A stretch of DNA of 61,208 nt from a virus (lineage: Duplodnaviria > Caudoviricetes), in IMG/VR virus record IMGVR_UViG_3300032227_000235, positions 1 to 61,208 of that record; one strand, given 5' to 3'. The notes beneath the pieces were generated by a model. It was not told the origin of the DNA, did not search any database, and saw only the letters and a program-made list of their open reading frames with translations. The position numbers and the translations under genes were made by a program. The stretch's first letter is position 1. The number at the start of each line of letters is the position of its first letter. Shown here in pieces: positions 12,088-58,663 of the stretch.

Positions 12088-12089
12088 AT

Positions 12090-25444: not shown

Positions 25445-25453
25445 TAGTCAGCC

Positions 25454-25690: not shown

Positions 25691-25691
25691 T

Positions 25692-26526: not shown

Positions 26527-27179
26527 GCCGCCTCGGTCAGGCTAGTGCGGTGAGTCTTATAGGCGTCTCTAACTATTTTCTGATCTACTTCACTTAACTG
26601 AGATATTTGTTCAGCATGTTTTGCGGCCCACGCGGCAAGATCTCCGGTGTTCTGAATTAGGCTGATATCACTCAGTAAGGCTGGAACGAATACTTGCTGT
26701 TCTGCAAGCGTTGGCGTCTCTTTTGGAGCCTCTTCCAATACTGGCTGCTGATCCTGTTCTGGTTTCCCACGGGCCGCTCTACGTTCTGCTTCTTTCTTTA
26801 ATTCGTCTTCATCGATCTCTTCTTTAGAGTAGATCTCTCCGTGCAAGTTCAGCAATTTTAGCACTACGCGGTCCTTGGCGCGTTTCTCGGCCATCGATAT
26901 CGGATAGCCATTTTTATTGTTGTATGGTGCCGCTTCGCCGTAGGACCATTCTGTGCGATCGCCAAGATGACCGGTGACGCGAATAACCGCGATCTTTTCC
27001 TTGGCATTCATTTCAGTTTCGTGAGGTTCATCGAAGGTAATGCCGGCTTTGGCGGCGATGATCTCAACTGCTTTATGATAGATTACCCAAACACCATGAC
27101 AGTCCCATACGGCGCTGCGTGGGTCAGGATGATAGGCTTTCAAAATATCTACAAGGCGAGGGTCTAGTTGTTTAGGCAT
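26523..27179 (-). CDS. Putative single-strand annealing protein (Rad52/Sak-like)
   Basis: WSYGEA...N..YP..MAEKRAKDRVVLKL; adjacent to exonuclease and SSB. Confidence 0.55.
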   Translation of the reverse strand: MPKQLDPRLVDILKAYHPDPRSAVWDCHGVWVIYHKAVEIIAAKAGITFDEPHETEMNAKEKIAVIRVTGHLGDRTEWSYGEAAPYNNKNGYPISMAEKRAKDRVVLKLLNLHGEIYSKEEIDEDELKKEAERRAARGKPEQDQQPVLEEAPKETPTLAEQQVFVPALLSDISLIQNTGDLAAWAAKHAEQISQLSEVDQKIVRDAYKTHRTSLTEAA

Positions 27180-27441
27180 TATCTTGTCTCCAAACACGAA
27201 TTCCGGTTTCTGTTACTCTCGTGGTGAACACGGCGCGTATGCCGGCGTCTTTCCAATGGATTTTGGCGCGATCGATCGATTGATAAATACTGGCGCGCAA
27301 AGCCATAATCTGATGCCGCGTCGGGTTATCCTGTTCGTATGGAGCTAAAAAGCTCTGTCCGATTTCTAGTCTTTCCGTCGGATATCGATCCGACTTACGC
27401 GGAATCCGCACAGCATCTTCAATTACGAATTCGGTGTGCAT
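27172..27441 (-). CDS. Small phage DNA-binding-like protein
   Basis: IE..V.IP....YP...LEIGQSF...F.TR....GIRVWR family pattern. Confidence 0.7.
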   Translation of the reverse strand: MHTEFVIEDAVRIPRKSDRYPTERLEIGQSFLAPYEQDNPTRHQIMALRASIYQSIDRAKIHWKDAGIRAVFTTRVTETGIRVWRQDNA

Positions 27442-27641
27442 AGTCTTCTCCGATTATATTTCTCTGCTTGAATCCATTTGATTGCTTCGTGCATGTGCCA
27501 ATGGAACTGCGCAGGATCTTTCCCGTAAATTGTTGGACGGCGCAGATACGAGTGGGCCGTCTTTCGGTTAAAATCGGCCATATAAATACGATGGTTCATG
27601 GCGCTGTGTTGATCTTCAGAGATCACAGGGAGAGGCGTCAT
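27423..27641 (-). CDS. Hypothetical protein
   Basis: Overlapping start/stop packing in the leftward operon. Confidence 0.5.
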   Translation of the reverse strand: MTPLPVISEDQHSAMNHRIYMADFNRKTAHSYLRRPTIYGKDPAQFHWHMHEAIKWIQAEKYNRRRLCTPNS

Positions 27642-27877
27642 TACTCAGCCGCCTGTATCTGTGGGCTATTTTCAGCAACGATCTCGGCGCGGATTGTGTC
27701 GATCAGATCAGACAGGCGTCTCATCTGATATTCGTCGGCGCCGTCAATAAAGATCATAGCGGTGTTGGCGTTTTCCCAATTGTTGGTGACGATAAGAAAA
27801 GGTTCCAAGAAGTCAGAACCGCCGACTGAGAAAACTTTATCGGCTTTTTCGATGCGAATTGTTGCGCGAGATTTCAT
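27641..27877 (-). CDS. Hypothetical protein
   Basis: GAGGA RBS; typical QAAE end. Confidence 0.6.
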   Translation of the reverse strand: MKSRATIRIEKADKVFSVGGSDFLEPFLIVTNNWENANTAMIFIDGADEYQMRRLSDLIDTIRAEIVAENSPQIQAAE

Positions 27878-27888
27878 AATTGTGATCC

Positions 27889-28209
27889 TCAGTAATCGTC
27901 GTGGCCGTAGGAGCGATCGATCGCATTCGAGACAGCGTCATCAATCAAGTTTGAATAAACGAGCGAGACAAAGTGCTTGCCGGTTACGATATGTTCCGGG
28001 CCTTCGGCGCCATCGTCATCAATAACCATGCGAATTTCATCGATCTCGAATTCCGCACCGGCGCCGGGATCGTCGTAGCTGCTGGCATAGCCCTCGTGGG
28101 TGACGGTGTAGTCGATGTAGTAGTTGACGGCGGAGCCCATGAATTCGCTGAATACATAGGCAGTCCCAGAAGACGCAGGTCTGGCGCGGCGGCGGTGATG
28201 GTAAAGCAT
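27889..28209 (-). CDS. Hypothetical acidic protein
   Basis: GGAG RBS; YDDPG.G.EFEI motif common in phage early proteins. Confidence 0.6.
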   Translation of the reverse strand: MLYHHRRRARPASSGTAYVFSEFMGSAVNYYIDYTVTHEGYASSYDDPGAGAEFEIDEIRMVIDDDGAEGPEHIVTGKHFVSLVYSNLIDDAVSNAIDRSYGHDDY

Positions 28210-28249
28210 GTGAATTCTCCGGTTTTAGATAAGGCGATGGGTGAGCGGC

Positions 28250-28597
28250 TTATTCAGCCGCATCTGCCCAGACCGGACGCACCTTAATGTTCAGACGTTC
28301 GCTGCTGGATGTCGTAAAGAATTCTTTCTGGAATTCCGCATCGACGTTTAATTCAATGAAGGCTTTGGCCTTCTTGGTGTCCAGCTTGGTCGAGGAGACG
28401 ACCGTCTTGATGGCGATGAAGTGATCGCCAGAGTATTCGGAATCAGCCGCGACACGAGATTTGATTGCCGTGTTGAGCTTGGTCTCGCGGTCTTCAAGCT
28501 GTTTGATAGCGGCCTGTAAATTGCCAAGCTCGTCAATCAGAGCCTCTGTTGAGGTGTTGTCGAGAGCTGAAATGTCGATGGTTTTTTTGGTGGTCAT
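28250..28597 (-). CDS. First gene of leftward early operon, coiled-coil phage protein
   Basis: IDELG.L.A.IK.L...E..L pattern; RBS upstream. Confidence 0.65.
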   Translation of the reverse strand: MTTKKTIDISALDNTSTEALIDELGNLQAAIKQLEDRETKLNTAIKSRVAADSEYSGDHFIAIKTVVSSTKLDTKKAKAFIELNVDAEFQKEFFTTSSSERLNIKVRPVWADAAE

Positions 28598-28662
28598 GAT
28601 GTGCCCTTCCAAAGGTTGTCGTTGCCGATGGAAAGGAGAATATCAATTTGACAGTTGAAGTC

Positions 28663-28678
28663 AACTGCATTTGTAGTC
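28663..28678. promoter_or_regulatory. 16-bp palindromic operator in the leftward promoter region
   Basis: AACTGCA-TT-TGTAGTC; related copies in many other intergenic regions. Confidence 0.6.
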
Positions 28679-28705
28679 CAAAGTTAAAATATTTTGAATT
28701 TATTT

Positions 28706-29458
28706 TTATCCGCCTAAGACAATCTTGTGGACAAACCGCACTCTGTTTCGGGTAAATTTGATTTCTTTTCTTGGGTTTAGCTGCTCTAAAACAAGCTGCT
28801 TATCGTCAATAGAGATAAATCTCTTCACAAAGCCTTGTATGGCGCCCTCGTTGCCGTTCTCGGCAATTTGAGCCACGACAAAATCTCCTCTTTTTACAGG
28901 CATTGTGGGATGAACATAGGCTGTCTCGCCTGAATAATAACGTGGTTCCATTGATTCGCCTGAAACACGAACCGCATAAGCATCCTTCACGCTGCTCAAA
29001 ATTGCGGGAGCATCCGTCATTTCCATAGCCTCGCCTATAGTAACTGCGCCGTCTGATCCGGCCAGCGCAGAACTATAAAGAGGGATCTGCCGTGGCGAAT
29101 ACAACGCGACATTAACTCTGTCAGTTGCATTCGCGGAAGGGTCTTGATCTACATTTCCCGTATTTTTTTTAACATTCTGAGTAGAATGGTTAATACTTTC
29201 TCTTTGTGCGCCGCGAAAGATTCGATCTATCTCGCCGCCTTCTTTGCCTGAGTGCAGCCACGATGGAGAGCATCCTAGTGCTTTGGCTAGGGTGATGCAG
29301 GCTTCCAGTGAAGCGGCGCGTTCGCCTCGCATGTATGAGCCAAGTGTAATTCTATTCATTCCAGTTATACTTGCTATTTCAGCGGGTGTTTTAATCCCTT
29401 TTTTTTTAGCTGCTAAGTTCAAACGCTTGGCAAAATCTTCAAAATTTCTGACGGCCAT
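28706..29458 (-). CDS. cI: CI-like repressor (XRE HTH plus S24 peptidase)
   Basis: N-terminal HTH (LAKALGCSPSWL), V.GESMEP (Ser) and FVKR (Lys) autocleavage dyad. Confidence 0.92.
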   Translation of the reverse strand: MAVRNFEDFAKRLNLAAKKKGIKTPAEIASITGMNRITLGSYMRGERAASLEACITLAKALGCSPSWLHSGKEGGEIDRIFRGAQRESINHSTQNVKKNTGNVDQDPSANATDRVNVALYSPRQIPLYSSALAGSDGAVTIGEAMEMTDAPAILSSVKDAYAVRVSGESMEPRYYSGETAYVHPTMPVKRGDFVVAQIAENGNEGAIQGFVKRFISIDDKQLVLEQLNPRKEIKFTRNRVRFVHKIVLGG

Positions 29459-29528
29459 TTGGTGGCTCCGATCTGGACATGAGTGCCCTGGATTAACCTT
29501 ATCCACAAAATGGCGAATGCACACAAAC

Positions 29529-29564
29529 GAATGCAATTGACACAATGCGACTACACTAGTAGAC
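29529..29564. promoter_or_regulatory. Tandem operators overlapping the rightward (cro) promoter
   Basis: GAATGCAATTGACACA (29529) and GACTACACTAGTAGAC (29549), 20 bp apart, containing TTGACA. Confidence 0.6.
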
Positions 29565-29572
29565 CATTTTAC

Positions 29573-29815
29573 ATGACGAATCAATCCCAACATAAGGTGT
29601 GGAATTTACTCACTAAATGGCCGACTGCCGCCGTTTTGGCTTCCGACCTAGGTCTGAAATCCCGCACTCATGTTGCTTGCTTCAAGGTCCGTGGCCGAAT
29701 TCCTCGTGCTTACTGGCACGATCTTGTTGCCGCCGCCGAACGGCGCGGGATCGATGGCGTGACGTTAGATGAACTGAAAAAGATACACGAAGACATAGGT
29801 CAGAGGCGGTCGTGA
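29573..29815 (+). CDS. cro: Cro-like repressor
   Basis: Divergent from cI; WPT...LA.DLG...RGRIP..YW..LV.AA. Confidence 0.75.
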   Translation: MTNQSQHKVWNLLTKWPTAAVLASDLGLKSRTHVACFKVRGRIPRAYWHDLVAAAERRGIDGVTLDELKKIHEDIGQRRS

Positions 29816-43572: not shown

Positions 43573-45225
43573 ATGTTTGAAGAGGCTGAACAGGATCAAC
43601 TGATAGGTCAGCTAATCCGGGATGTCGGTGAGCCTAGCTACATCGAGGAGGTCCGGGAAGAGTGCGCGAATAGCCTGTATGCCTTTATCGAACATTGCTG
43701 GCCTATCTGTGAGCCAAGTATGCCCTTTGCCGGCAACTGGCACATTCGGTTCATCTGTGAGCATTTGGAAGCGATTACGAATGGTGTCCAGTATGAGGAT
43801 GGGTCGTATTACAACCGTCTACTGGTGAACATTCCTCCGGGCTGTATGAAGAGCCTATTGGTGAATGTGTTCTGGCCTCTATGGGAATGGGGCCCGAAGA
43901 ATATGGCGCATCTTCGATATATCTGCGCCTCGCACTCTCAGGACATTGCGATCCGCGACGGTCTTCGTATGCGCAGGGTCGTGGAGAGTAAGTGGTATCA
44001 GAAGCTCTGGCCTAATGTTCGGTTGACTAGTGATCAAAACCAAAAGACGCGGTTTGAGAACACGGCTAGTGGTTGGCGTATGGCTGCGGCGGCTGGATCA
44101 ATTACGGGCCATCGTGCGGATAGGATCGTTATAGATGATCCGATTTCGATGAAGGATTCGATGTCTGCTCAGATTAAAGAGACGACGAATACATGGCTGA
44201 GTGAGGCTGTTCCTACTCGTCTGTCTAGCCCTGAGAAGTCAGCCATACTTATGATCATGCAACGCCTCTCGGAGGACGATCCATCAGGCTATGTGTTGGA
44301 CAATTGGGCCGATGATTGGGATCATATCTGCTTGCCGATGAGATATGAGAGCGCAAGGTCGTTTCCGACTAAGCTAGGTTATGAAGATCCTAGAACGGAA
44401 GAGGGCCAGCTATTATTCCCGGATCGTTTTCCGCCTGACGTTGTAGACCGCGATGAGAAGGCTATGGGTGTTTGGGCTACTGCTGGTCAGCATCAGCAAG
44501 CACCGAGTCCTCGCGGTGGCGGTATTTTGCCACGATCGGCATGGCAACTATGGGAGACGGATAACTATCCTAACTTCGACTATGTGGTGGCTACTCTAGA
44601 TACGGCGTTTACGACTAAGGAGGAGAATGATCCTTCTGCGATGTGCATCTTTGGTGTGTGGTCTGGCGCCGATGATGTAGCGCGGATCGGGCGCAACATT
44701 GCTAGCCGTGAGGATTCGGAAGCGATCGTAGCGCGACAGATGCAGGATGGTCATCCCAAGGTCATGCTGATGTATGCCTGGAACGAGCGCCTGGAATTCC
44801 ATGATTTGGTGGAGCGAGTTAGAGAGGCTTGCGTTCGGTATCAGGTCGATAATCTGATTATTGAGAACAAGGCTGCTGGCATATCGGTGGCGCAAGAGTT
44901 GCGGCGTGTTTATGGGTCTGCCGGTTTTGGTGTTCAGCTAGTCGATCCGAAGAATGCGGATAAGGTTTCGAGGCTTTATGCGATCCAGCATTTATTCATG
45001 GATGGTTTGGTTTATGCGCCGGACAAGACATGGTCTGAACAAGTGATCCATCAATGTTCTGTGTTCCCGAAAAGCAAGCATGACGACTTGGTTGACTGCG
45101 TGTCGATGGGCATGAGCCATTTGCGTAAGACGGGCGCCTTGTTGCGTGGTCGTGAATATACTGAGCAACTCAGTGATTCTATTCTGCATAGAGGTGCGCC
45201 GCCGACGCCATTATATCAGTGCTAG
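43573..45225 (+). CDS. terL: Terminase large subunit
   Basis: NIPPGCMKS Walker A, IVIDDP Walker B, MQRL, DTA and HDDLVD nuclease motifs. Confidence 0.95.
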   Translation: MFEEAEQDQLIGQLIRDVGEPSYIEEVREECANSLYAFIEHCWPICEPSMPFAGNWHIRFICEHLEAITNGVQYEDGSYYNRLLVNIPPGCMKSLLVNVFWPLWEWGPKNMAHLRYICASHSQDIAIRDGLRMRRVVESKWYQKLWPNVRLTSDQNQKTRFENTASGWRMAAAAGSITGHRADRIVIDDPISMKDSMSAQIKETTNTWLSEAVPTRLSSPEKSAILMIMQRLSEDDPSGYVLDNWADDWDHICLPMRYESARSFPTKLGYEDPRTEEGQLLFPDRFPPDVVDRDEKAMGVWATAGQHQQAPSPRGGGILPRSAWQLWETDNYPNFDYVVATLDTAFTTKEENDPSAMCIFGVWSGADDVARIGRNIASREDSEAIVARQMQDGHPKVMLMYAWNERLEFHDLVERVREACVRYQVDNLIIENKAAGISVAQELRRVYGSAGFGVQLVDPKNADKVSRLYAIQHLFMDGLVYAPDKTWSEQVIHQCSVFPKSKHDDLVDCVSMGMSHLRKTGALLRGREYTEQLSDSILHRGAPPTPLYQC

Positions 45226-45290
45226 ACTAGATTTATCCTACGACTGCCATTATAGTCATACATCCGCAGTCGATAGGGTCGCGCACCATT

Positions 45291-47621
45291 ATGCCTATTG
45301 TTCCGGGCGTTTCGCCTTCAATTCGTAATCTAGGCTTGGGTGCCGTTCCTGATTCAGTGGTTCCTGAAGTGGAGCCACAAGAGCCTGAAGTTATCCTTGG
45401 CGATATCGAGGCTAATCCTCTTTTGAAGGTTGAGAACGAAGACGGATCGATCACGATCTCTTTGGATGGCAAGCCTGTTGTTCCGGACGATGATGATGCT
45501 TCGAGCGCGAAGGAGTGGTTTCGCAATCTCGTTGAAGACATAGATCAGATGGAGCTATCTCGCATAGCGAATGAATTGCTTGATGGCATACAGGATGATC
45601 TGGATAGTCGGATTGATTGGGTTGAGGACCGTGCGCATGGGATGCGTCTGCTTGGTCTGAAGATTGAAGGTGGCTCGGTTTCTTCATCTGGTGACGGTGC
45701 GCCGGTTGAGGGCATGTCTAGGGTTCGTCATCCATTACTGCTTGAGGCGGTATTGCGGTTTCAGGCGAATGCTTCTGCTGAATTGCTTCCTACTGATGGG
45801 CCTGTGAAGGTTAAGGTAGTCACAAGCGGCTCTATGATTGAGGCCGATGAGATGGCCAATAACCTAGAGGCGGATCTTAATTACTATCTGACGATCCGGG
45901 CGCCTGAATATTATCCTGACACCGATCGCATGTTGAACATGCTTGGGTTTGGCGGGACATGTTTCAAGAAGGTTTATTTCTGTCCATTGCGTGGTCGTCC
46001 TGTATCAGAGTCGGTCGATGCAGAAGACCTGATAGTGAACAATGCTGCTACGACGCTGGAGGATGCTCGGCGTGTAACGCATCGTGTGAGTATGCGCCCA
46101 TCTACGGTGCGCCGGATGCAGATCCTTGGTGTTTACCGGGATGTAGATCTTCTAACGCCAAAGCCGGCTGATAATGACGCTGTGAAGCAAGAGAAGGCTG
46201 AACAGCAAGGTGTGTCTCTTGATTCTATGAATCCTGACGATCGTGATCGTGAGATCTACGAATGCTATTGCGAATTAGATATCAAAGAATTCGAGCATAA
46301 GCACAAGGGCAAGCTCTCTGGGTTAGAGATCCCGTATCGTGTGACGATTGATGTTTCCTCTCGTGAGATCTTGTCGATAACGCGGAACTACGATGAGCCT
46401 ACCGGAGAAGAGGGAGATATTCTCCCACGAGCGCGCAAGAATTTTGTCAAATATAGTTTTGTTCCCGGCATGGGTTTTTACGATATCGGTTTATTGCATA
46501 TTCTGGGCAATACGACGCAAGCGGTCACGGCGATGTGGCGTGAGATGCTGGACGCTGGCATGTTTGCAAACTTTCCGGGTGCGCTTATCGCTGATACTGG
46601 CGCCCGCCAACAAACGAATATCTTTCGCGTTCCTCCCGGTGGTGCGGCTGTTGTTAAGACCGGTGGTTTGCCGATTAATCAGGCGGTGATGCCGCTTCCA
46701 TATAAGGAGCCTGGTCCGGCTAGTTTTAATCTTGTTCAGTCGATGGTTGAGACGGGCCAGAGATTAGGTGGCACGGCTGAGTTGCAAGTTGGTGAGGGTC
46801 GTCAAGATGCGCCGGTAGGAACGACGCTAGCGATGATTGATCAAGCCACGAAGGTTATGAATAGCGTTCACAAGCGGTTGCATAGGGCGCAAGCGGAAGA
46901 GTTTAGACTTCTAGTTCGGACGTTCCGTGAGCATCCCGATAGTTTCCTGCGAGACAAGTCTATTGCTGGTCGCTGGACAGAGAAGCTGTTTATTGAGGCT
47001 CTCAATCAATATGACCTGACGCCACAGGCTGATCCTAACACGGCCAGTCAGATGCAACGGCAGATGAAGGTCGATGTTCTTAAATCGATGCAGCAAGCTA
47101 ATCCATCTTTGTATGATGCGGCTGCTGTAGATATTGCGGCGTTACGATCGATCGGGTGGAGCAATCCAGAGCAGTTTATGGTCTCGCCAGATAAGCGTGA
47201 CTCGATGCCGCCTGACATGCAGATGCAAGTTGAGGCTGTCAAAGCTCAGAGCAAGGCTGCTGACGCTAAGATGATTGACAGTCAGACGAAGGCTAATCTT
47301 GCGAAGGCTCAGATTGGCAAGATCCAGCATGAGATCCAGACGGGTGGTGAGGGCGCCAACCCTGCTGATCCGATGGCTGGCATGGAGATGCAATTAAAGA
47401 AGCAAGAGATCGATGCGAAGTCACAAGAGGCTTTGCTTGATGCGATCAATCGTCAGAGGGATCGTGAATCGCGTGAGCGCCTAGCTGCGGTGAGGCTGGC
47501 TGAGAACACGGCGAAGAATCCAATGGGTGCGGGTGTGATCGATAAGATGGTTGATCCCGGACTGATGGATCGTTTGCAGAACAATGAAAAGCCTGTGCCG
47601 GGAACAGAAGGTGCATACTGA
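45291..47621 (+). CDS. Portal protein
   Basis: HPLLLEA..RFQA.A..ELLP.DGPV, FKKVY, GFY.IGL.H.LG, APVGTTLA; directly after terL. Confidence 0.9.
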   Translation: MPIVPGVSPSIRNLGLGAVPDSVVPEVEPQEPEVILGDIEANPLLKVENEDGSITISLDGKPVVPDDDDASSAKEWFRNLVEDIDQMELSRIANELLDGIQDDLDSRIDWVEDRAHGMRLLGLKIEGGSVSSSGDGAPVEGMSRVRHPLLLEAVLRFQANASAELLPTDGPVKVKVVTSGSMIEADEMANNLEADLNYYLTIRAPEYYPDTDRMLNMLGFGGTCFKKVYFCPLRGRPVSESVDAEDLIVNNAATTLEDARRVTHRVSMRPSTVRRMQILGVYRDVDLLTPKPADNDAVKQEKAEQQGVSLDSMNPDDRDREIYECYCELDIKEFEHKHKGKLSGLEIPYRVTIDVSSREILSITRNYDEPTGEEGDILPRARKNFVKYSFVPGMGFYDIGLLHILGNTTQAVTAMWREMLDAGMFANFPGALIADTGARQQTNIFRVPPGGAAVVKTGGLPINQAVMPLPYKEPGPASFNLVQSMVETGQRLGGTAELQVGEGRQDAPVGTTLAMIDQATKVMNSVHKRLHRAQAEEFRLLVRTFREHPDSFLRDKSIAGRWTEKLFIEALNQYDLTPQADPNTASQMQRQMKVDVLKSMQQANPSLYDAAAVDIAALRSIGWSNPEQFMVSPDKRDSMPPDMQMQVEAVKAQSKAADAKMIDSQTKANLAKAQIGKIQHEIQTGGEGANPADPMAGMEMQLKKQEIDAKSQEALLDAINRQRDRESRERLAAVRLAENTAKNPMGAGVIDKMVDPGLMDRLQNNEKPVPGTEGAY

Positions 47622-50600
47622 TGAGTGATGATTTACGCCGCCGCCAAGGAGCTAGTCCATCTGCTGATTTAGGATCAGTAACGCCTCGACATGCTCCTGT
47701 GTTGAATACTCCTGCTGCTAGGCAAGGCCGCGGATTGTCGTTTGGCGAGTGGATGTATCGCAAGGGCCTTCTTAATCCTAATGATTATGCCCTAGCTCGC
47801 GGTGGTAGCGCGAATGATCGCGGCCATTTTGATGGCGGTGGTGCGGCTGCAACTGTTCTCCCGCCGGGAGCTAATCCGGCTGAAGGTTGGATGCCCTATG
47901 ATGGGCCTGTAGTTAATCAAGCCGCGGGTATGCCTGGTGCTATGCCTGGTGCTATGCCTAGCGCCAATTCCGTTCCTAACAACGGATCTAGCATAGCCAA
48001 TGTGTCTACGCCTCCTAATTGGGCTGACACATATGTTGGTGATCTTTATCAGACACTATTAGGCCGGCAAGCTGATCAGGGCGGTTTGGATTATTGGTCT
48101 GATCAATTAGATGATGGATTAATTCAAAGACAAGATCTTGTCCCGCATTTTCTGAATTCTGCTGAATATCAGAATTTATATAAAACCAATCCTAATGAAG
48201 CAATTAAAGACTTATACGCCACTACCTTGGATCGTGATCCGGATCAGGGCGGCTTAGATTATTGGACAGCTCGTGCCAAAGAAGGCATGACCTCTGACCA
48301 GATGTTAAGCCAATTTAGACTTGCTGATGAATATAAAAACGCAAATAAAATTACGGATGCTTTTTTAAGGTATGGGAATCAATATCCTACTGATAGCCAG
48401 ATGGCGGCGGCTCAAGAGCAGCTAAGGCTTGGCAAGGATATAGATCAATACATTGTCGATTTGCCAGAAACCCAAAGGTTTTATTTTGATAGTGCATATA
48501 GAAATGCTTTGGGAAGAGGCGTTGATGATTCTGGCTATAATTATTGGTCAAATGCGCTTCAAAACGGTGATGTAACGCCTGATCAATTTTTAGATACTCT
48601 TTACAATACGCAAGAGGCTAAGGATTATTATAATAGCAATATTATTAAGGATGCTTTCCATAGTTATTTAGGCAGGGCGCCGACTAGCCAAGAAAACAGC
48701 GATTTTCTAAATAGAGTAAATACTTATGCGAGTCAGAACCAAAATAACTATGATACAGCGTATGATAGAATTGAAGCTGAATTAGCTAATTGGCCTAATG
48801 CTAGGAGTTACTCGCAATCGAATGCTGCTCCGTATCAAGTTGCTTCTGCGGCTACTATGTCGGATGCAGAACAGCCTACGTTAAAAACGGCGCATGATTT
48901 TTCTCACCAAAATCTTTGGGAAGTTAATAGTTTTGGGAGTGATGCTGAAAAAATTGGCGCTTTAGTTCAGCAAGAAGGCGGTAGGTTTGTTGATCAGATT
49001 CTTGATCCAAACACATCGAACGATGTCAAGTTCCAAGCGATGCGTGAGATTGAGGGCATTGCTAACGTGGTGATGAACCGCGCTGCTGTTGGCTATAAAA
49101 ACAACAACACTGGTGGTTGGTTTACGACAAGAGGATATGATCCTAAGAGCATTGTTTCTCAGATTTTAGCGCCCTATGCCTTCTCTGCAATGAACAGCGC
49201 AGCAAGGGATAAGAAGACTGGCCTCCCGTTAGCCAAAGCAGGCTATGAAGCAATACAAAGATACAAGGATCTTAAAGATACGGCGGGCTATAAGCCGATT
49301 ATGGACGTATTGAAGGAGATTGTCGCCAACAAGCGCGTTGATCTTACTGATGGCAGCACTGATTACAAAGCAAATTATATTCACCCTTATTGGGCAAAAC
49401 ACGGCCCATTGAAATTAATAACTGATCTTGGTGGGCCGCCAAAGCCTAAGCAATCTTACCATCAGTTTTACGGAACACCAAAGTTAAGAGAGCAAGCGAA
49501 GAAGGCTAGAGGCTTTACGTTTGAGGTTGGTGTTGATCCCGGCGGCGGAGCTACTCCTCCTAGTAGCGGTGGCAGCGGTGGAACTGGTGGCGGATATCCA
49601 CCACCACCACCACCGGGCGGTGGACCACCATCCGGAGGAGGATTTGAAGGCGTCGGTGGCGTCGGAGGCAACGGTGGCGTCGGTGGTAACGGTGGCGCTG
49701 GTGGCGATGCAGGAGGCGTCGGAGGCAACACAGGTGGTCATACAGGTGGCCACACAGGCGGACATACAGGTGGTCATACAGGTGGTCACACAGGTGGTCA
49801 TGGTGGCGATGTTCATGGTGGCCACACTGGTGGCGCTGGTGGCATAAGTTTTGGCCCGGAAAGCATGGGCGGTGGACATCATGCAAGCGGTCACGGCGCT
49901 GTTGATCCGTATTTTGGTCATGCCGGTAGCTCTGTCTACGATCCTCATAAAAACGGAATTGTTGCATCAGCAGATTGGGAATATGATTACGCAAGAAAAC
50001 GCGGCGGTCGTATTAACAAAGACCACGGCGGCTCTGTTGACGACGCATTGAGGCGAATGGGTTTTAATGCGGGCGGCTCCGGCCCGGATGAAGACGAACT
50101 GGAGCGCAAGGCACATCAATCTCTTTGGGAGCAAACCAAAGAGGCAACTCATAATGCGTATGTGAATACGATCCCGTCGAATGTCCGCCTGCTTGGCGAG
50201 ACGATGATGGGTGTTGATACGCCTATAACAGAGCGTGATTTCCCGGCTAGCGATTTAGACGCGATGCGCGCCCAATTATCTACGTCTAAGAGAATGGCGG
50301 AAGACCGAGAGAACAATCTTCGTGAAATAGCGAAGATATCTCCGCAAGAATATGCGCGCACAGACCAAGCAAAGGGTAAGCTGACATTTGATAACCAAGG
50401 CAATCCGAAAATTAGTCAGGAAAGCTACGAAGACTTTATGGGTGGCGTTAGGAAGAGGCTGGATTCTTTTGATGCTACACGAGGGAAGACGACTGTAGGT
50501 GGCTATCGAGATCATGCTGGTTTGGACAATTACGGGTGGAAGCAAGCTATTGATCGATCGATATATGATCCGGATTTTCGGGTAGCGACGACGCTAGGTC

Positions 50601-52615
50601 GTTATCAGGCGCAAGATACGCCAAACGGCCCTGTGATCCGAGATGATTACAATTTCGATAAGTGGAACACTGAGAATTCCGAAAAGGTTGACGCCTCTAC
50701 GCTAAGAGATACGCCGATACATTTCGTTGATTATTTGATGCGGAAATATGCCGGCAATCGTCATCGTCCGGTTAATATTAATCTCCAGCATTATGATCAG
50801 GGCGGGCGCGTTGGATTTGCGGAAGGCGGATCGGATGAAGACCGTGATCGTATGCGTCATTGGTCCGACTCGCAGAGGGCGCATGAGTTTGTTCAGCAAC
50901 AATTGAACAGCGGTGAGAAGCAATTACCGCAATATGATCCGGAGGGTGGCAAGAAGACGGCTGTTGATGCGGCGCTGACGGGCTACGGCATGACCAATGC
51001 GGGTGGCGTTCAGGATGCTATTGGCGCAATGCCTGATGGCAACGGCGGGTTTAATCCGTCGTTGTATCGGAATATCCGTGAGGGCAATTACTTAGACGCT
51101 GGCTTGCAAGCGATGGGCGCCGTTGTTCCGGGCTTTGGTGGCGCTGTTGCAAAGGCTGGTCGCCTAGCTAATAAGGGCGCGAAGGCTGCAAAGGCTGTTG
51201 AGACTGCGTCTACGGCTGCAAAGACTGCTGAGAATGTCTCTGATGCTGGCAATGCGGTTGAGAAGGCTGAAAGCAAGTTATGGAAGCCATCTGCGCCTCG
51301 TATTATTCGTCCTGGCGAAGAAGGAACACCGACTGTTGGCGATATCCTCGCTAAGAACGGTTACACCGATATTCCGACAGACAAGAAATATGTGTATTGG
51401 CTTGATGCGCTGAATGAGCCGGCAAGCAAACAGACGCAAGCTAATCTGCTTCTAGAATTCAAAGATTCTCTAAAGCACCATTTGTCTTTGCCGGATGGAA
51501 TGCGTCGTCAGAACACTAGAGATGCGATGGAGGCTGCGGTTCCTTATCTTGGTGAAACATCTAAGGGCGTTCCGCATGATTTAATCACACAGAATTTGAA
51601 GCAGGGTAAGGCTGCTGCTGCTCTTGGCATTACGAATAATTACGGCAATCCGGTTGATACATGGGGCCTATCATTGTCTCCAGCGTTGAATTGGGAAGCT
51701 CTTCGCCTTTGCGGCAATGACGCTATTTGCCGTGCGCTTTGCCTTGGCAAGAAGTCAGGTGGTTATGCGCTGGAAGGCGCCATGAATGATGAGTATCAGA
51801 TCAATTTGCCTCGTGCGAATTCATTAGGCCGGACGATCTTTATGATGCAGAGGCCGCGTGAGTTTGCTGTTCGCATGGCTGATGAGATACAAGCACTAAA
51901 GGGTGAGACGGCTAAGAACGGCATGGATCTCGCCCTGCGGTTAAACACGTTATCGGATTTGCATCCGACAACATGGTCGCCGTTCCGTGATGCCTTCCCA
52001 TATGAAGATTTCTATGACTACACAAAGCATAATGTGAATGCGATGGGTCCAAACCATCATTTGACGTATTCGTCTACGGGACATTCGCAAGATGGTTTGA
52101 TTAATCCTTATTCTAATTTCACAAAGATGATCGATCGGCTGAATGGTGGCGATAACGTCGCCATCGTGATGAATCAGAAGCATGATAAGCCGAAGCTGCT
52201 TGAATATCTTGATAGGCAGTATGAGATCCGCGACGGTGACGCGCACGATTATAGGCCGCATGATAAGCAGCCAAAGGGCAAGCAAGGTGTTATTCTTGCG
52301 CTTGGTAAGAAAGAGCAAGGTAAGGGCGCCACGGCTGAAGCTGCTCGTGAGCGTTCCGAAGGTTTCTATTTTGATTTCTGGCCTAAGAAGGATGGCGAGA
52401 AGATCACTATTCCTGATCAGCGCGCCTATGCGGAAGCTGAGAAAGCGGAGCGCATACGTCGCAGCAAGAAGAAGGGCGGCGGTGGCTTAGAGGTCGATCA
52501 CGATATCTGGCGCAGTCAGTATCATAATCACCACCATTTCGAGGACGCGCCTCCGGGTAAGAGAAAGATCCCGGATTGGTGGTCTAATCAGGAATCCAAG
52601 CGGAAAGCTGGATAG
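47621..52615 (+). CDS. 1664-aa multidomain virion protein: DUF4214-like repeats, SleB-like hydrolase, Gly/His linker, unknown domain, Gp88-like domain
   Basis: LY..LLGR..D..GL.YW repeats; IANVVMNR...DLTDGS..Y...P.W...H.FY; GLSLSPA, Cx5Cx3C, RLN.LSD, FYDYTK, HLTYS, DGD.HD.R. Confidence 0.8.
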   Translation: MSDDLRRRQGASPSADLGSVTPRHAPVLNTPAARQGRGLSFGEWMYRKGLLNPNDYALARGGSANDRGHFDGGGAAATVLPPGANPAEGWMPYDGPVVNQAAGMPGAMPGAMPSANSVPNNGSSIANVSTPPNWADTYVGDLYQTLLGRQADQGGLDYWSDQLDDGLIQRQDLVPHFLNSAEYQNLYKTNPNEAIKDLYATTLDRDPDQGGLDYWTARAKEGMTSDQMLSQFRLADEYKNANKITDAFLRYGNQYPTDSQMAAAQEQLRLGKDIDQYIVDLPETQRFYFDSAYRNALGRGVDDSGYNYWSNALQNGDVTPDQFLDTLYNTQEAKDYYNSNIIKDAFHSYLGRAPTSQENSDFLNRVNTYASQNQNNYDTAYDRIEAELANWPNARSYSQSNAAPYQVASAATMSDAEQPTLKTAHDFSHQNLWEVNSFGSDAEKIGALVQQEGGRFVDQILDPNTSNDVKFQAMREIEGIANVVMNRAAVGYKNNNTGGWFTTRGYDPKSIVSQILAPYAFSAMNSAARDKKTGLPLAKAGYEAIQRYKDLKDTAGYKPIMDVLKEIVANKRVDLTDGSTDYKANYIHPYWAKHGPLKLITDLGGPPKPKQSYHQFYGTPKLREQAKKARGFTFEVGVDPGGGATPPSSGGSGGTGGGYPPPPPPGGGPPSGGGFEGVGGVGGNGGVGGNGGAGGDAGGVGGNTGGHTGGHTGGHTGGHTGGHTGGHGGDVHGGHTGGAGGISFGPESMGGGHHASGHGAVDPYFGHAGSSVYDPHKNGIVASADWEYDYARKRGGRINKDHGGSVDDALRRMGFNAGGSGPDEDELERKAHQSLWEQTKEATHNAYVNTIPSNVRLLGETMMGVDTPITERDFPASDLDAMRAQLSTSKRMAEDRENNLREIAKISPQEYARTDQAKGKLTFDNQGNPKISQESYEDFMGGVRKRLDSFDATRGKTTVGGYRDHAGLDNYGWKQAIDRSIYDPDFRVATTLGRYQAQDTPNGPVIRDDYNFDKWNTENSEKVDASTLRDTPIHFVDYLMRKYAGNRHRPVNINLQHYDQGGRVGFAEGGSDEDRDRMRHWSDSQRAHEFVQQQLNSGEKQLPQYDPEGGKKTAVDAALTGYGMTNAGGVQDAIGAMPDGNGGFNPSLYRNIREGNYLDAGLQAMGAVVPGFGGAVAKAGRLANKGAKAAKAVETASTAAKTAENVSDAGNAVEKAESKLWKPSAPRIIRPGEEGTPTVGDILAKNGYTDIPTDKKYVYWLDALNEPASKQTQANLLLEFKDSLKHHLSLPDGMRRQNTRDAMEAAVPYLGETSKGVPHDLITQNLKQGKAAAALGITNNYGNPVDTWGLSLSPALNWEALRLCGNDAICRALCLGKKSGGYALEGAMNDEYQINLPRANSLGRTIFMMQRPREFAVRMADEIQALKGETAKNGMDLALRLNTLSDLHPTTWSPFRDAFPYEDFYDYTKHNVNAMGPNHHLTYSSTGHSQDGLINPYSNFTKMIDRLNGGDNVAIVMNQKHDKPKLLEYLDRQYEIRDGDAHDYRPHDKQPKGKQGVILALGKKEQGKGATAEAARERSEGFYFDFWPKKDGEKITIPDQRAYAEAEKAERIRRSKKKGGGGLEVDHDIWRSQYHNHHHFEDAPPGKRKIPDWWSNQESKRKAG
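49730..49801 (+). repeat. 12-bp tandem repeat x6 encoding TGGH
   Basis: ACAGG[TC]GG[TCA]CA[TC] units. Confidence 0.9.
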
Positions 52616-52648
52616 CGGGACGCCGCTTAATCTCTGGAGAGAAAAACT

Positions 52649-53872
52649 ATGTCTGTAACGACTGCAAAAGCATCTCAGGCTGCTGCCAAAGCGAAAGCGC
52701 ATCGGCTCTGTGGGATGAGCAATACTGAAAAGCCTTTTTATCCTGCTGGTGAGAAGGCAAATGATAAGACGGGTATGCGCCCGATTTCAAAGCAGGGTCT
52801 TAAATCTGGCGGCAAGGTAATTGGTGGCAAGATCACTGGCCCGAAAGCTGCGGCTCGTGCTGATCGTGTTGCGCGCAAGTCTGGTGGTCGCATTGGTAAA
52901 GAGCTTGCCAATATGGATCTTAAAGCTGCGAACAAAGCGCGCAAGGGTGGTGATGATCACGAAGGTGGTTTGAAGCGCGGTGGATCTGCAAAGCCTAAGA
53001 AGGCAATGGGTGGTCCTAGCGGTCGTTTGTCTGAACAGGTTGGCAAAGATCCTATCGCAGAGATGAAGAATGTTCAGCAATACCAGGCTGACAAATCACT
53101 GGATGCTGGTGGTGTCTCTGGCCTGTATGCGGGTTCCATGCGCAAGCGTGGTGGCAAGGTTGGCAAGCCTACGCAGAAAGATAAGGCGTGGAGCAAGTAT
53201 AAGGCTGACGCCAAGGAGGCTGGCATTTCTGAGAAGGATGCAGAAGGCTCAAAGAGCAAGTTCAAGCCGGCTGTTAAAAAGACATCCATGAAAGAAGACA
53301 AGCCTTTCATGTCGAGATCTTTAAAGACAAAGCCTATCGAGGAGAAGAAGAAATTCGCTCCTATGGAAGAGGTTGAGGCTGAATATGATGAGCCAGATCA
53401 CGATGAGATGGACGATGAAAGCGAGATGCCATTAAAGAAAGGCGGTCGCGTTAAGAAGTGGTCTGGTGGTGGTTTCTCTTCTGGTGAGAAAAAGACGAAG
53501 AAGAAGAAAGCCTCTACGGGCAAGAAGAACATCACGAACATTATCATTGCTGGCAATCCTAATGCTACGCCGGCTGCTGGTGCTGGTGCGGCTGTTCCTC
53601 CGATTGCTCCCGGCCCGCGTGTTCCTCCTCCTGTAATGCCAATGGGTGGTGATGGTCCTAATCCTCCTCCTCCTGGCGGTGAGCAGCCAATGCCTCCGTT
53701 GGGTGCGCTTGCTGCTAATCCAATGATGCCACCACAAGTTGGTATGCCTCCGGAAATGCCGCGGCAGATGGCGAACAAGGGCGGTCGCATTGGATCTTAT
53801 GCTTCGATGAAGGCTGGCGCTGGTTCTGGTCTTGGTCGTTTGAAGAAGGCTGGTCTTAGCCTGTCGAAATAA
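52649..53872 (+). CDS. Lys-rich disordered head protein with many KxGG motifs
   Basis: LKSGG, RKSGG, LKRGG, KAMGG, RKRGG, LKKGG, ANKGG; Pro-rich segment; AGAGSGLGRL.K end. Confidence 0.8.
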   Translation: MSVTTAKASQAAAKAKAHRLCGMSNTEKPFYPAGEKANDKTGMRPISKQGLKSGGKVIGGKITGPKAAARADRVARKSGGRIGKELANMDLKAANKARKGGDDHEGGLKRGGSAKPKKAMGGPSGRLSEQVGKDPIAEMKNVQQYQADKSLDAGGVSGLYAGSMRKRGGKVGKPTQKDKAWSKYKADAKEAGISEKDAEGSKSKFKPAVKKTSMKEDKPFMSRSLKTKPIEEKKKFAPMEEVEAEYDEPDHDEMDDESEMPLKKGGRVKKWSGGGFSSGEKKTKKKKASTGKKNITNIIIAGNPNATPAAGAGAAVPPIAPGPRVPPPVMPMGGDGPNPPPPGGEQPMPPLGALAANPMMPPQVGMPPEMPRQMANKGGRIGSYASMKAGAGSGLGRLKKAGLSLSK

Positions 53873-54200: not shown

Positions 54201-54611
54201 ATGCCTTACATGAAAGTGCATCACGAGGTCGATCCAAAGCAGAAAATCTTGGATGATCTTGGTGATATTAACGGCAAAATCCGTCTTACGAACAATCTTG
54301 TGGCTGTTGTGGTGTATCAGCGGCCAAATATGACGATGCTTGGCGGTGTAGAGTTCGAATTGCCATCTTCTGTGGTTGATGAAGATCGTTTTCAGTCCAA
54401 AGTTGGGTTGATCGTGGCAATGGGACCGAATGCTTTTAGAAAAAGCGATGAATGGCCTTTCTGCGGCGATGATCACGAATTCAAACTGCATGATTGGGTG
54501 GCATTACCGGCTTCTGCTGCGCAATCAATGATGATTAACGGTGTTTTGTGCCGTCTTTGCCCAGATACGTCGATCAAAGCGTGGTCGTCTGATCCAGATC
54601 TAGTCTACTGA
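54201..54611 (+). CDS. groES: GroES-like co-chaperonin
   Basis: T.GG..LP...D.D....VG.IVAMGP.AF...DWV...INGV.CRL..D..I. Confidence 0.75.
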   Translation: MPYMKVHHEVDPKQKILDDLGDINGKIRLTNNLVAVVVYQRPNMTMLGGVEFELPSSVVDEDRFQSKVGLIVAMGPNAFRKSDEWPFCGDDHEFKLHDWVALPASAAQSMMINGVLCRLCPDTSIKAWSSDPDLVY

Positions 54612-56923: not shown

Positions 56924-57835
56924 ATGGCAACTAATCTATCGCAGATTAAAGACTTGCTCCTTCCCGGACTGCGCGGAATCGAAGGCAAGTATGAACAAAT
57001 CCCTAGTCAATACGACAAGGTGTTCACGAAGCACGACAGTAAAATGGCTGTTGAGCGCACGGCTGAGATGCGTTTTCTCGGTCTTGCAAAGCTGAAAACA
57101 GAAGGCGGTCAGACTGAATTTGATAATTCATCTGGTGAGCGTTTTGTCTTCTCTCAGTCTCATACAGAGATTGCGCTTGGCTATGCGATTACTCGTAAAG
57201 CCATCGATGACAATCTGTATAAGGCACAGTTCCAGCCATCTAACCTTGGCCTTATGGAATCGTTTGCTCAGACGAAGGAGCTTTATGCTGCTGATCTTCT
57301 GAACACAGCGACGGTCTATAATCCAAATGTTGGTGGTGACGGCGTTGCGCTTTGCTCTGGCTTCCATCCGATTGATGGCGGCACGTTTGCTAACCGTCCT
57401 GCAACGGATGTTCAGTTAAACGAAGCTACGCTGCTCAATGCGATGATTGGCATTCGCACGAACTTTAGAGATCAAGCTGGTCTCAAAGTGTTTGCGCGTG
57501 GTCGTCGTCTGATTGTTCCGCCACAGCTTGAGCCTACTGCTGTTCGGTTGCTTAAAACTGAACTGCGTCCTGGCACGGCAGACAACGATATTAATGCTCT
57601 TCATTCGGTCGCTGGCGGCTTGAGCGAAGGCTACATGGTGATGGACTTCTTAACATCTCCAAATGCCTGGTTCTTGCTGACCAACATTGACGGCTTGTCC
57701 TACATGGAGCGCGTTAAGTTCGAAACCGACATGAGCGTTGACTTCGTAAGCGATAACCTTCTTGTCAAAGGCTACGAGCGTTACTCGTTTGGCTATTACA
57801 ATCCGCGGGCGCTCTACGGATCGTTCCCGGTTTAA
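56924..57835 (+). CDS. Major capsid protein (Mu gpT-like HK97 fold)
   Basis: LLPGL, K.EG, ALGYAIT.KAI.DNLY, GGDGV.L....HP, LIVPP.L, ERYSFG..NPR..YGS. Confidence 0.92.
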   Translation: MATNLSQIKDLLLPGLRGIEGKYEQIPSQYDKVFTKHDSKMAVERTAEMRFLGLAKLKTEGGQTEFDNSSGERFVFSQSHTEIALGYAITRKAIDDNLYKAQFQPSNLGLMESFAQTKELYAADLLNTATVYNPNVGGDGVALCSGFHPIDGGTFANRPATDVQLNEATLLNAMIGIRTNFRDQAGLKVFARGRRLIVPPQLEPTAVRLLKTELRPGTADNDINALHSVAGGLSEGYMVMDFLTSPNAWFLLTNIDGLSYMERVKFETDMSVDFVSDNLLVKGYERYSFGYYNPRALYGSFPV

Positions 57836-58411: not shown

Positions 58412-58663
58412 ATGATCATGGGTGAATATGCTGGCAAAGATTTAATCGCCAATTCAAAGAAAAAAGATGAGTCCTTCAAGAAGGGCGGTCGCACGAAGAA
58501 GAAATGTGGCGGCGTGATGAGTGCTGCTGCTCACAAGAAAGAGATGAAGGCTTGCGGTGGCGCTAGCGGTATGCGCGCTGATCGTCCTGCTCGTAAAGCT
58601 GGTGGGCCTGTCTTCTCTGCTGCTGCTCATGGTGAGCCTCGCGGCAAGGCTTCTAATTACTAA
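58412..58663 (+). CDS. Small basic protein with KxGG motifs
   Basis: FKKGG, KKCGG, KACGG, RADR.ARKAGG (shared with the 407-aa protein). Confidence 0.7.
   Translation: MIMGEYAGKDLIANSKKKDESFKKGGRTKKKCGGVMSAAAHKKEMKACGGASGMRADRPARKAGGPVFSAAAHGEPRGKASNY

Follow-up and report, generated by a model that had tools for sequence, protein, structure and literature searches.

Glycine-Pair Motifs in the Internal Proteins of the Phage Genome

The window analyzed here, the whole 61,208-nucleotide stretch of IMG/VR record IMGVR_UViG_3300032227_000235, is a complete 61,208-bp genome of a temperate podovirus-like phage. Five of its presumed internal virion proteins, here called P0001 to P0005, carry a short peptide motif flanked by glycine pairs. 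The genes and motif sites are as follows, with L numbers denoting loci of this analysis that carry homologues or copies of the motif.

45,291-47,621 (+), portal protein (P0006; phrog_1216, E 6e-35), without the motif in this genome
47,621-52,615 (+), P0001, a 1664-aa polyvalent-type protein encoded directly after the portal gene
47,783-47,848 (+), degenerate pair DYALARGGSANDRGHFDGGGAA (P0001 55-76), upstream of the DUF4214 repeats
49,985-50,083 (+), motif cluster DYARKRGGRINKDHGGSVDDALRRMGFNAGGSG (P0001 789-821), following the Gly/His-rich tract
50,783-50,839 (+), the one canonical motif copy LQHYDQGGRVGFAEGGSDE (P0001 1055-1073), about 15 residues upstream of the conserved C-terminal module
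52,457-52,489 (+), RRSKKKGGGGL (P0001 1613-1623), after the GP88 module and before a His-rich tail
13,007-18,016 (+), P0002, a 1669-aa ejection-type protein
14,282-14,335 (+), WNLFNRGGRVKKRGGGSL (P0002 426-443), where relatives carry the S74-type head SDPR[VL]K
14,552-14,581 (+), RDHFSIGGRE (P0002 516-525), a half-site just after the S74-like segment
14,954-15,013 (+), EKLFAANGGSIPHFGMGGFA (P0002 650-669)
15,395-15,466 (+), LFSDPSMKTGVGNRQGFSFGGPED (P0002 797-820), the SDP-headed form, where relatives have KRGGRV...GGPDS
18,013-22,434 (+), P0003, a 1473-aa polyvalent-type protein with a ddrB-ParB domain
22,234-22,287 (+), REQRASGGRLAFAAGGQA (P0003 1408-1425), about 50 residues before the C-terminus
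52,649-53,872 (+), P0004, a 407-aa basic protein (K+R 19%) predicted to be disordered, with six half-sites: LKSGGKV, RKSGGRI, LKRGGS, RKRGGKV, LKKGGRVKKWSGGG, and ANKGGRI
58,412-58,663 (+), P0005, an 83-aa basic protein with FKKGGRTKKKCGG and ARKAGGPVF

P0001 consists of a low-complexity N-terminus, DUF4214 repeats (Pfam, E 3.6e-31), a cell-wall-hydrolase-like region, a Gly/His-rich tract, an unknown middle part, and a GP88 module at residues 1337-1572 (E 2.4e-13); its homologues combine GP88 with ART-PolyVal, LPD38, InPase, or lysozyme domains. The homology block shared with the L001 protein starts at P0001 residue 1087, whereas the matching motif in L001 lies at 422-437 between different modules; the near-identical 14-mer is located between nonhomologous modules in the two proteins. 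RRSKKKGGGGL aligns with FAKGGRV in the L001 homologue, and the cluster at 789-821 is conserved in the 91%-identical P0007 as KRGGRINKDRGG. In an AF2 model, the canonical copy has a pLDDT of about 28, and model residues 580-598 (P0001 1619-1637), which begin within the GGGG run, have pLDDT below 50, so the motifs flanking the confidently folded GP88 core have low pLDDT. In a second AF2 model, the sites at 55-76 (within the 1-132 segment) and 789-821 also lie in segments with pLDDT below 50; however, this model rests on a shallow alignment of 6 sequences, and 744 of its 1100 residues are below 50, so it says little about whether motifs lie in linkers.

P0002 contains an N-terminal DNA-ejection-protein module (phrog_4287 and phrog_6121 over 336-505), a putative S74-like segment, Gly/Ala-rich hydrophobic tracts, and a GH108 lysozyme (881-954). 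In an alignment with its relatives (A1), G522, G523, G657, and G658 were invariant, and the site at 650-669 aligned with RGGRI(G/N)R(S/A)(I/V)GGVMPF in L022 and L018. P0003 carries ddrB-ParB at 620-742 (E 1e-25), with further matches to PHROG families; at the position of its motif, the L018 homologue has KRAAGGRMSRK followed by the same conserved tail ILDKPDEAVVRALS. The N- and C-terminal sites of P0004 are conserved in the 341-aa L001 and 769-aa L008 homologues, the latter with 8 GG[RK][VILT] sites, and the ESM Atlas model of P0004 has a mean pLDDT of 0.41.

Enrichment of the Motif

An earlier note had reported a motif [FLYRK]-[AKNDS]-x-G-G-[RSK] at the domain junctions of P0001 and in the other four proteins, but not in portal, capsid, or terminase. 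This observation is confirmed: every string lies where the note placed it in P0001, those listed for P0002 to P0005 are also present, the listed motifs occur only in these five proteins, and portal, terminase, and capsid have no hit. To address whether composition could account for this, we compared the five proteins (5296 aa) with the other 71 ORFs (14,081 aa) of a mechanical set of 76 ORFs of 50 aa or more, some of them probably spurious. The pattern of the earlier note hit 15 times in the five proteins and 0 times elsewhere (means of 1.3 in within-protein shuffles and 2.6 when GG dipeptides were kept; none of 300 shuffles reached 15), although this figure is inflated because the pattern was written after seeing the hits. 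The simpler GG[RK][VILT] occurred 12 times against 3 (shuffle means 1.5 and 3.0), and the paired form GG[RK][VILT]-x(1-8)-GG occurred 7 times against 0 (shuffle means 0.14 and 0.69); none of 300 shuffles reached either count. In contrast, [FYLMW]-x-x-GG alone was not enriched once GG content was kept (21 observed against a mean of 23.9, reached by 236 of 300 shuffles).

We also built an HMM from 42 nonwindow copies. Only P0001 1058-1072 scored above the null (23.6 bits against a null maximum of 5.4), and all other window sites scored 5.3 bits or less, which indicated that the remaining window copies are degenerate half-sites. In addition, motif flanks were no more disorder-like than random positions in the same proteins on a crude composition scale.

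Recurrence of the Motif in Related Phages

A scan of IMG/VR for G-G-[RS]-[VIM]-G-F-A-[DE]-G-G (best copy GGRVGFAEGG) gave 96 matches, all of them in frame in ORFs of 157-2508 aa, which formed 41 unrelated protein clusters including ejection proteins, lysozymes, polyvalent-protein modules, and portal-lysozyme fusions. Position -2, which the search did not constrain, was Ala in 68 of 104 copies, and the spacer was 4 residues in 104 of 119; conservation stopped abruptly after the second GG. By comparison, the same pattern gave only 25 hits in 596 Gb of bacterial genomes, mostly in short ORFs in high-GC DNA. One motif locus, L124, looks like a prophage copy in the isolate genome of Acidisoma cellulosilyticum. 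Of 93 motif loci, 88 encode a homologue of a window protein, and portal homologues, which mark the lineage in which the motif occurs, were found in 46 of the 93 at 31-68% identity. The paired form occurred 12 times in 21 close GP88 relatives, against 1.8 expected, and many carriers have 3-8 copies. Synonymous codons varied freely: all four Gly codons and both Arg codon families are used, and the mean pairwise nucleotide identity of the 30-nt core was 0.75, about what the fixed codon positions alone would give. GGA and GGG are the minority codons at these positions, and thus an internal Shine-Dalgarno sequence encoded by the Gly-Gly codons was dropped as an explanation.

In four loci (L030, L041, L103, and L108), the motif lies in a C-terminal extension of the portal ORF itself. 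The arrangement is portal (192-710), motif (828), and T4-type lysozyme (985-1127); however, the lysozyme was seen only in L030, because in the other three the ORF is cut off soon after the motif by the end of the available sequence. In one family, the motif is followed within 0-8 residues by a Tat-signal-like RRxFLK plus a hydrophobic stretch, although this family is a single evolutionary case. Homology-block ends were only modestly enriched near motifs (17% against 12% within 30 aa, reached by 8 of 500 null sets), and the motif itself can also seed or end alignments.

Searches for Cultured Carriers and Similar Structures

Megablast of positions 43,573-53,872 against cultured phages gave no match, tblastn of P0001 gave only distant GP88 and DUF4214 hits, tblastn of the 31-aa motif segment gave no match, and tblastn of two other carriers gave nothing or only a short C-terminal hit; no cultured carrier was found in these searches. 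A search for related loci with the whole of P0001 found none, and NCBIfam has no model for the carriers. The motif profile gave 0 hits in the PDB at E <= 10; L078 and the 136-aa protein also gave none, and the 128-aa protein gave one chance-level hit (E 0.77). Foldseek of the GP88 model gave nothing at E <= 0.001, so GP88 remains of unknown fold and is not evidently a protease, and the ESM Atlas gave no named relatives for the 128-aa protein or P0004. A literature search with four literal motif strings found no phage paper, and a review of ejection proteins (PMC8954989) does not contain the words glycine, proteoly-, processing, or "conserved motif." Resemblances to RTX, KGG repeats, and the GroES mobile loop were considered but were not supported by Pfam. 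A complex prediction with the portal alignment and a 40-aa motif alignment returned a score of 0.00 without a verdict and was given no weight in either direction.

Comparison with Known Systems

The giant proteins resemble the polyvalent proteins of phages and conjugative elements (Iyer et al. 2017, PMC5512222), which are multidomain proteins encoded among late virion genes, thought to be packaged and injected, and proposed to be cut into separate units. P0003 has the hallmark ddrB-ParB domain, and P0001 combines DUF4214 with a GP88 module that co-occurs with ART-PolyVal and LPD38 in homologues. Their genes also lie among virion genes: P0001 directly follows the portal gene, and P0002 and P0003 follow the 765-aa virion structural protein. 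However, processing is assigned in that paper to an MPTase domain, which is frequent but not universal in the class, and PF18818 gave no match at E <= 1 in the whole genome; the words glycine and linker do not occur in its main text.

Gly-Gly-Xaa processing of virion-core polyproteins by clan CE cysteine proteases provides another comparison. In ASFV, pS273R cuts core polyproteins at such sites (PMC9950752). The adenovirus protease recognizes (M/I/L)XGG-X. In these eukaryotic viruses, as here, GG-containing sites lie in packaged core proteins, including small, very basic DNA-associated proteins carrying several sites. The present motif is much longer, its hydrophobic residue is one position further from the GG, and its cleavage is only inferred. 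The earlier note was right that no classical prohead protease is present: Pfam scans of the window's ORFs detected no peptidase except an S24 repressor, although the terminase, portal, tail-fibre, 386-aa, and 765-aa ORFs were scanned with PHROGs only and remote homologues could have been missed. The head module likewise looks protease-free, with a 303-aa capsid protein and a separate 305-aa protein that we read as coiled-coil and presume to be a scaffold protein.

For the Peptidase_S74 intramolecular chaperone of phage fibres, in which SD.R.K is the self-cleavage head with the Ser-Lys catalytic dyad, Pfam did not call the domain in P0002. BLASTP of P0002 against this phage's own fibre C-terminus gave E 0.003, and P0002 450-506 is 54% identical (E 2e-14) to the segment of L067 that follows its SDLRLKE head. 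PF13884 matched 3 of the 41 motif carriers, without indication of which. At two seams of the ejection protein, the GG element and an SDP[RS]xK head occupy the same alignment positions in different relatives, and at one of these the head leads the S74-like segment; P0002 lacks the head there, with NRGGRVKKRGGGSLSD where L018 and L022 have SDPR[VL]K. In addition, the GG motif has no Ser or Lys at conserved positions and usually has no S74 body after it.

The T4 capsid targeting sequence, which is removed by gp21 cleavage, and encapsulin cargo-loading peptides are short peptides that send unrelated cargo into an HK97-fold shell; they are terminal, present once per cargo, and have known readers. 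The present motif is internal and often repeated, with several copies 15-50 residues from a C-terminus, and has no known reader. Conserved Gly-rich islands also lie between swappable segments of T-even gp38 adhesins, but those islands form part of a folded receptor-binding domain on the tail fibre, whereas this motif lies in predicted disordered linkers of internal proteins.

Possible Functions of the Motif

The earlier note proposed a functional tag at the module seams of packaged proteins, acting either as a cleavage site or as an address tag that lets unrelated cargo domains be packaged. This interpretation is partly supported. A selected, protein-level signal is well supported by its letter-for-letter recurrence in 41 unrelated carriers of one portal lineage, its freely varying synonymous sites, its location between nonhomologous modules, and the conservation of two positions in relatives, and the polyvalent or ejection-type carriers fit the idea of unrelated cargo domains; however, no result decides between cleavage and address tag. 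We propose that the GG elements are copies, mostly degenerate, of one short linear motif with the full form [F/Y]-A-x-G-G-R-[V/I]-G-F-A-[D/E]-G-G, used by a large lineage of uncultured podovirus-like phages that share this portal family. Our analysis establishes that the motif exists, is selected at the protein level, is confined to genes of presumed internal proteins, and sits between modules, whereas that it is cleaved, where, and by what, or that it is bound by a partner, is inferred only.

Our best, though tentative, guess is that the motif is a processing site, at which the giant proteins and the multicopy basic proteins would be cut at or next to the second Gly-Gly into separate modules, inside the head or on delivery, by a host protease or by a novel phage activity not recognizable in the genome. 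The seam position, the nature of the carriers, and the ASFV precedent are consistent with this view, as is the abrupt end of conservation, which resembles P-side-specified sites. A lysozyme tethered to the portal would need to be released, a Tat-like signal normally acts at a free N-terminus, and at two seams of the ejection protein the GG form alternates among relatives with an S74-type head. However, no protease family other than the S24 repressor was detected, 13 conserved residues are more than most protease sites need, some copies have Pro right after GG (P0002 FSFGGP and its relatives), only one window copy is canonical, and no cleavage product was observed. Nearly as possible, but likewise doubtful, is a docking or "sticker" element that would bind a conserved interior component (portal, capsid inner face, scaffold, or DNA) or other copies of itself, so that motif-bearing proteins would be corecruited into the procapsid and held near the portal, with P0004 and P0005 as multivalent hubs. 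Letter-perfect conservation across nonhomologous carriers, and across phages whose portals are only 31-35% identical, suggests one shared partner or self-recognition; the multiple copies in predicted disordered regions, the restriction to presumed internal proteins and the interior end of the portal, and the failure to find a protease gene also favor this reading. Conversely, no partner was identified, the motif profile matched no solved structure, a tag fused to the portal would not need to dock, and docking does not explain the swap with an S74-type head or the Tat-like sequence.

The other explanations appear less likely. A mechanical hinge, in which a short strand between two Gly-Gly swivels would let large proteins be stored, unfolded, and threaded through the portal and tail channel without a specific reader, fits a glycine-flanked motif in low-confidence linkers of proteins that must pass a narrow channel, but is unlikely because a passive hinge would not need an invariant R, F, A, and D/E, nor Ala at position -2, across 41 families. 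A DNA-level recombination linker promoting module shuffling, as was reportedly once proposed for glycine islands in T-even adhesins, would agree with the location at seams between shuffled modules but is very unlikely and disfavored by the free variation of synonymous sites. A compositional accident of Gly- and Lys-rich, low-complexity proteins accounts for plain Φ-x-x-GG, and individual half-sites score within the null range; it is nevertheless highly improbable overall and is refuted for the canonical and paired forms by the shuffles, the 96 of 96 in-frame viral matches, and the GP88 relatives. A more far-reaching possibility, which we consider unlikely, is that a whole clade of phages uses one self-contained peptide code to organize everything carried inside the head: the motif would be a homotypic or portal-nucleated sticker that condenses ejection proteins, effectors, and basic DNA-coating proteins at the portal, and also the seam where they are later separated, by a host protease or by a chemistry not yet described, which would amount to a portable, modular tag for loading and releasing cargo in tailed phages.

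Taken together, the results describe a real and apparently undescribed signal. For the still unclear questions of how podoviruses select, store, and release their internal (ejected) proteins, and how giant polyvalent proteins are turned into working units, a 10-13-residue motif that marks the seams of such proteins across a large uncultured lineage gives a concrete handle, which can be mutated, used as bait for its reader, sought at neo-termini in virion mass spectra, and tested as a portable tag for loading foreign cargo into phage heads, and it also gives annotators a simple marker for internal virion proteins in metagenomic phages.

Genome organization and candidate internal proteins

The 61,208 bases are a complete virus record with direct terminal repeats, and the gene content is that of a temperate podovirus-like phage. 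The main genes and proteins considered here are as follows.

43573-45225, large terminase
45291-47621, portal
56924-57835, 303-aa capsid protein
47621-52615, P0001, 1664 aa, with DUF4214 repeats and a GP88 module
13007-18016, P0002, 1669 aa, with a DNA-ejection-protein N-terminus and a GH108 lysozyme
18013-22434, P0003, 1473 aa, with a ddrB-ParB domain
1899-4070 and 4072-6375, two adjacent collagen-like (G-x-T repeat) tail-fibre genes, the second ending in a canonical S74-type segment with the head SDKRLK
23488-29593 (minus strand block), lysogeny module with an integrase and an S24 repressor-type peptidase
37-438, 133-aa small basic protein with DUF6321 (E 5e-16), a domain that also forms the C-terminus of much larger proteins in several PHROG families
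54201-54611, 136-aa protein that by eye resembles a GroES-type co-chaperonin, with a loop reading LGGVEFELP, although Pfam and PDB sequence searches returned nothing

In addition, a 765-aa virion structural protein, two ORFs with SU10-type adaptor domains, and GapR and MT-A70 domains were observed. The GapR-like and MT-A70 domains, which occur outside the lysogeny module, hint at an alphaproteobacterial host, as does a prophage-like match in Acidisoma (locus L124). The ddrB-ParB domain, together with the partners of GP88 in homologues (ART-PolyVal, LPD38, lysozymes), places the three giant proteins among the polyvalent proteins (Iyer et al. 2017; PMC5512222), for which processing by an MPTase domain has been proposed.

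Enrichment of the glycine-pair motif

The observation of the earlier note held, as all the motif strings that it listed in five proteins (P0001, P0002, P0003, the 407-aa basic protein P0004 and the 83-aa basic protein P0005) were found, those of P0001 at the coordinates it had given. To determine whether they exceed chance, we used a mechanical set of 76 ORFs, in which the five proteins total 5296 aa and the other 71 ORFs total 14081 aa. The regular expression of the earlier note gave 15 hits in the five proteins and 0 in the others; however, it had been fitted after the fact, and simpler forms were thus also counted. GG[RK][VILT] occurred 12 times against 3 (shuffle mean 1.5, or 3.0 with GG dipeptides kept), and none of 300 shuffles reached 12. 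The paired form GG[RK][VILT]-x(1-8)-GG occurred 7 times against 0 (shuffle means 0.14 and 0.69), and none of 300 shuffles reached 7. In contrast, plain [FYLMW]-x-x-GG was fully explained by GG content (21 observed against 23.9 expected). Thus, the real signal is GG followed by a basic and then an aliphatic residue, usually with a second GG a few residues on.

Conservation in related phages

Portal-based and P0002-based searches of IMG/VR returned 22 loci from three or more lineages, and the positional analogues of P0001, P0002 and P0004 in these loci carry the same elements. P0001 and the 1500-aa protein of locus L001 share only the C-terminal module (51% identity from residue 1087); however, QGGRVGFAEGGSDE in P0001 (1060-1073) matches RGGRIGFADGGSDD in the L001 protein (424-437), where it lies between different modules, and KKKGGGG aligns with FAKGGRV after the GP88 module. 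The P0003 site is conserved in locus L018, together with the tail that follows it. In a more distant relative, the 1117-aa protein of locus L008 (13941-17294), an acidic variant of the element was observed (YAEGGEVEAYGDGG, FEEGGDVE and KADGGEVERDHFGFGG), which suggests that the architecture Φ-A-x-GG-x-V...GG tolerates a charge swap. Among 77 GP88-containing proteins from metagenomes, the paired motif occurred 12 times in 8 of the 21 closest (1.8 expected) and 0 times in the 56 distant ones (3.3 expected), indicating that the motif belongs to a lineage and not to the GP88 domain.

We then scanned IMG/VR for DNA encoding G-G-[RS]-[VIM]-G-F-A-[DE]-G-G and found 93 stretches with 96 matches. Every match is in frame in an ORF of 157-2508 aa, and the ORFs fall into 41 clusters that are otherwise unalignable. 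Although the loci were selected by the pattern itself, so that the core columns are not independent evidence, positions that the pattern did not constrain are also conserved: Ala sits at -2 in 68 of 104 copies, an aromatic residue is common at -3, the two GG pairs are four residues apart in 104 of 119 loose matches, and conservation ends right after the second GG. All four Gly codons and both Arg codon families are used; thus, selection acts on the peptide. The same pattern gave only 25 hits in 596 Gb of bacterial genomes, nearly all of them short ORFs in high-GC DNA, and one looks genuine, a 1033-aa ORF in Acidisoma cellulosilyticum.

Of the 93 viral loci, 88 encode a BLASTP homologue of some window protein, with portal homologues in 46, the 765-aa protein in 32 and terminase in 28. 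Across the 41 clusters, we observed the DNA ejection protein phrog_4287 (9), the virion structural protein phrog_6121 (4), Peptidase_S74 (3), lysozyme, SLT, cell-wall hydrolase and pesticin domains, and LPD23, ART-PolyVal, InPase, GP88 and DarB-like domains. In four loci (L030, L041, L103 and L108) the motif is in the portal ORF itself. L030 (1-3402) reads portal (192-710), motif (828), a roughly 150-residue linker and a T4-type lysozyme (985-1127; PF00959, E 6e-21), whereas in the other three the ORF is cut off soon after the motif by the end of the stored stretch, so that the lysozyme was seen only in L030. Such a fusion would place twelve lysozymes at the inner end of the portal. Two small proteins encoded just upstream of the ejection gene, at 12084-12470 (128 aa) and 12474-13001 (175 aa), are conserved in 16 and 15 motif loci, respectively. 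The 128-aa protein appears by eye to be an internal duplication; a similar domain is fused directly behind a motif in locus L045, and loci L050, L078 and L083 end in a related-looking module, but no family or structure match was found.

Canonical and degenerate copies and their position

An HMM built from 42 non-window copies scored P0001 1058-1072 at 23.6 bits, whereas every other window site scored 5.3 or less and shuffled proteomes reached 5.4. The window therefore has one canonical copy plus a significant excess of degenerate half-sites, and seven of the ten best HMM hits lie in the five proteins.

To address whether the motifs lie at seams, we first considered P0001, in which Pfam coordinates place the four sites outside DUF4214 and GP88. 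An AF2 model with a 28-sequence alignment folds the GP88 core with confidence but leaves 1040-1138, which holds the canonical copy, at pLDDT 28-47, and 1619-1637 below 50. A second model of residues 1-1100 puts the other sites in low-confidence segments, although this is weak evidence, as it rests on only 6 sequences and 744 of 1100 residues are below pLDDT 50. A long Gly-rich tract with GGHT and GGNG/GGVG repeats (about 49540-49900, P0001 about 640-760) lies between the hydrolase-like region and the second motif cluster. Ends of homology blocks between carriers lie within 30 residues of a motif in 17% of 172 clustered cases, against 12% at random, a value reached by eight of 500 random sets; however, the motif itself can seed or end an alignment, which biases this comparison. 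A crude composition scale showed no difference between motif flanks and random positions, and P0004 is predicted to be disordered overall.

Clues to mechanism

In an alignment of P0002 with relatives, the P0002 element NRGGRVK..KRGGG lies where the L018 and L022 proteins have SDPR[VL]K-TGV..F.RGG; conversely, P0002 has SDPSMK-TGV..FSFGGP where the relatives have KRGGRV..GGP. SD.R.K is the self-cleavage head of S74 chaperone domains. Other ejection proteins of the lineage have a canonical head followed by an S74-like body, to which P0002 450-506 is 54% identical. An S74-like (intramolecular chaperone-type) segment is embedded in the ejection protein (14240-14590, P0002 about 412-528), and this phage has GG elements in place of the head that relatives keep. 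GG-headed and SDP-headed forms therefore replace each other at the same seams, one of which adjoins the S74-like body. In addition, a lysozyme fused to the portal behind a motif would need to be released. In one family of 650-750-aa proteins encoded upstream of terminase (L029:293-2476, L023:533-2737, L024:3172-5166 and relatives), the motif is followed after 0-8 residues by a Tat-signal-like RRxFLK plus hydrophobic stretch and a shared C-terminal domain of about 200 aa, whereas the N-terminal parts differ between lineages. Multi-copy carriers were also observed, namely P0004 with 6 sites, the 769-aa protein of L008 with 8, and locus L115 with 6 or more.

No protease was found: searches of the genome gave no S78, S49, ClpP or MPTase match, and Pfam across the ORFs detected only S24. 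No solved structure was found to carry the motif, a search for four literal motif strings found no phage paper, and two relevant papers do not mention glycine, one of them that of Iyer et al. (2017), in whose main text the word does not occur.

The S74-head alternation, the portal-lysozyme fusion, the Tat-like sequence and the sharp conservation edge favour a processing site, and there is a precedent in the virion-core polyproteins of ASFV, which are cut at Gly-Gly-Xaa (PMC9950752). Adenovirus provides a similar case. However, the missing protease, the length of the motif, Pro after GG in some copies and the multi-copy carriers fit a docking or sticker motif about as well. We tentatively place a processing site slightly ahead, with docking possible and only a little less likely; a passive hinge is unlikely, a DNA-level recombination linker very unlikely and a compositional accident least likely of all, while the remainder is left for some other explanation. 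The proposal of the earlier note that these elements are cleavage sites or address tags was partly supported, in that the existence of the motif and the selection on its peptide sequence rest on the analyses themselves, whereas cleavage and docking are inferred from sequence alone.

Taken together, the carriers belong to known kinds, the ejection proteins and polyvalent proteins, whereas the motif itself appears in none of the libraries or literature searched here. Its interest lies mainly in making cargo loading and processing in these phages directly testable.
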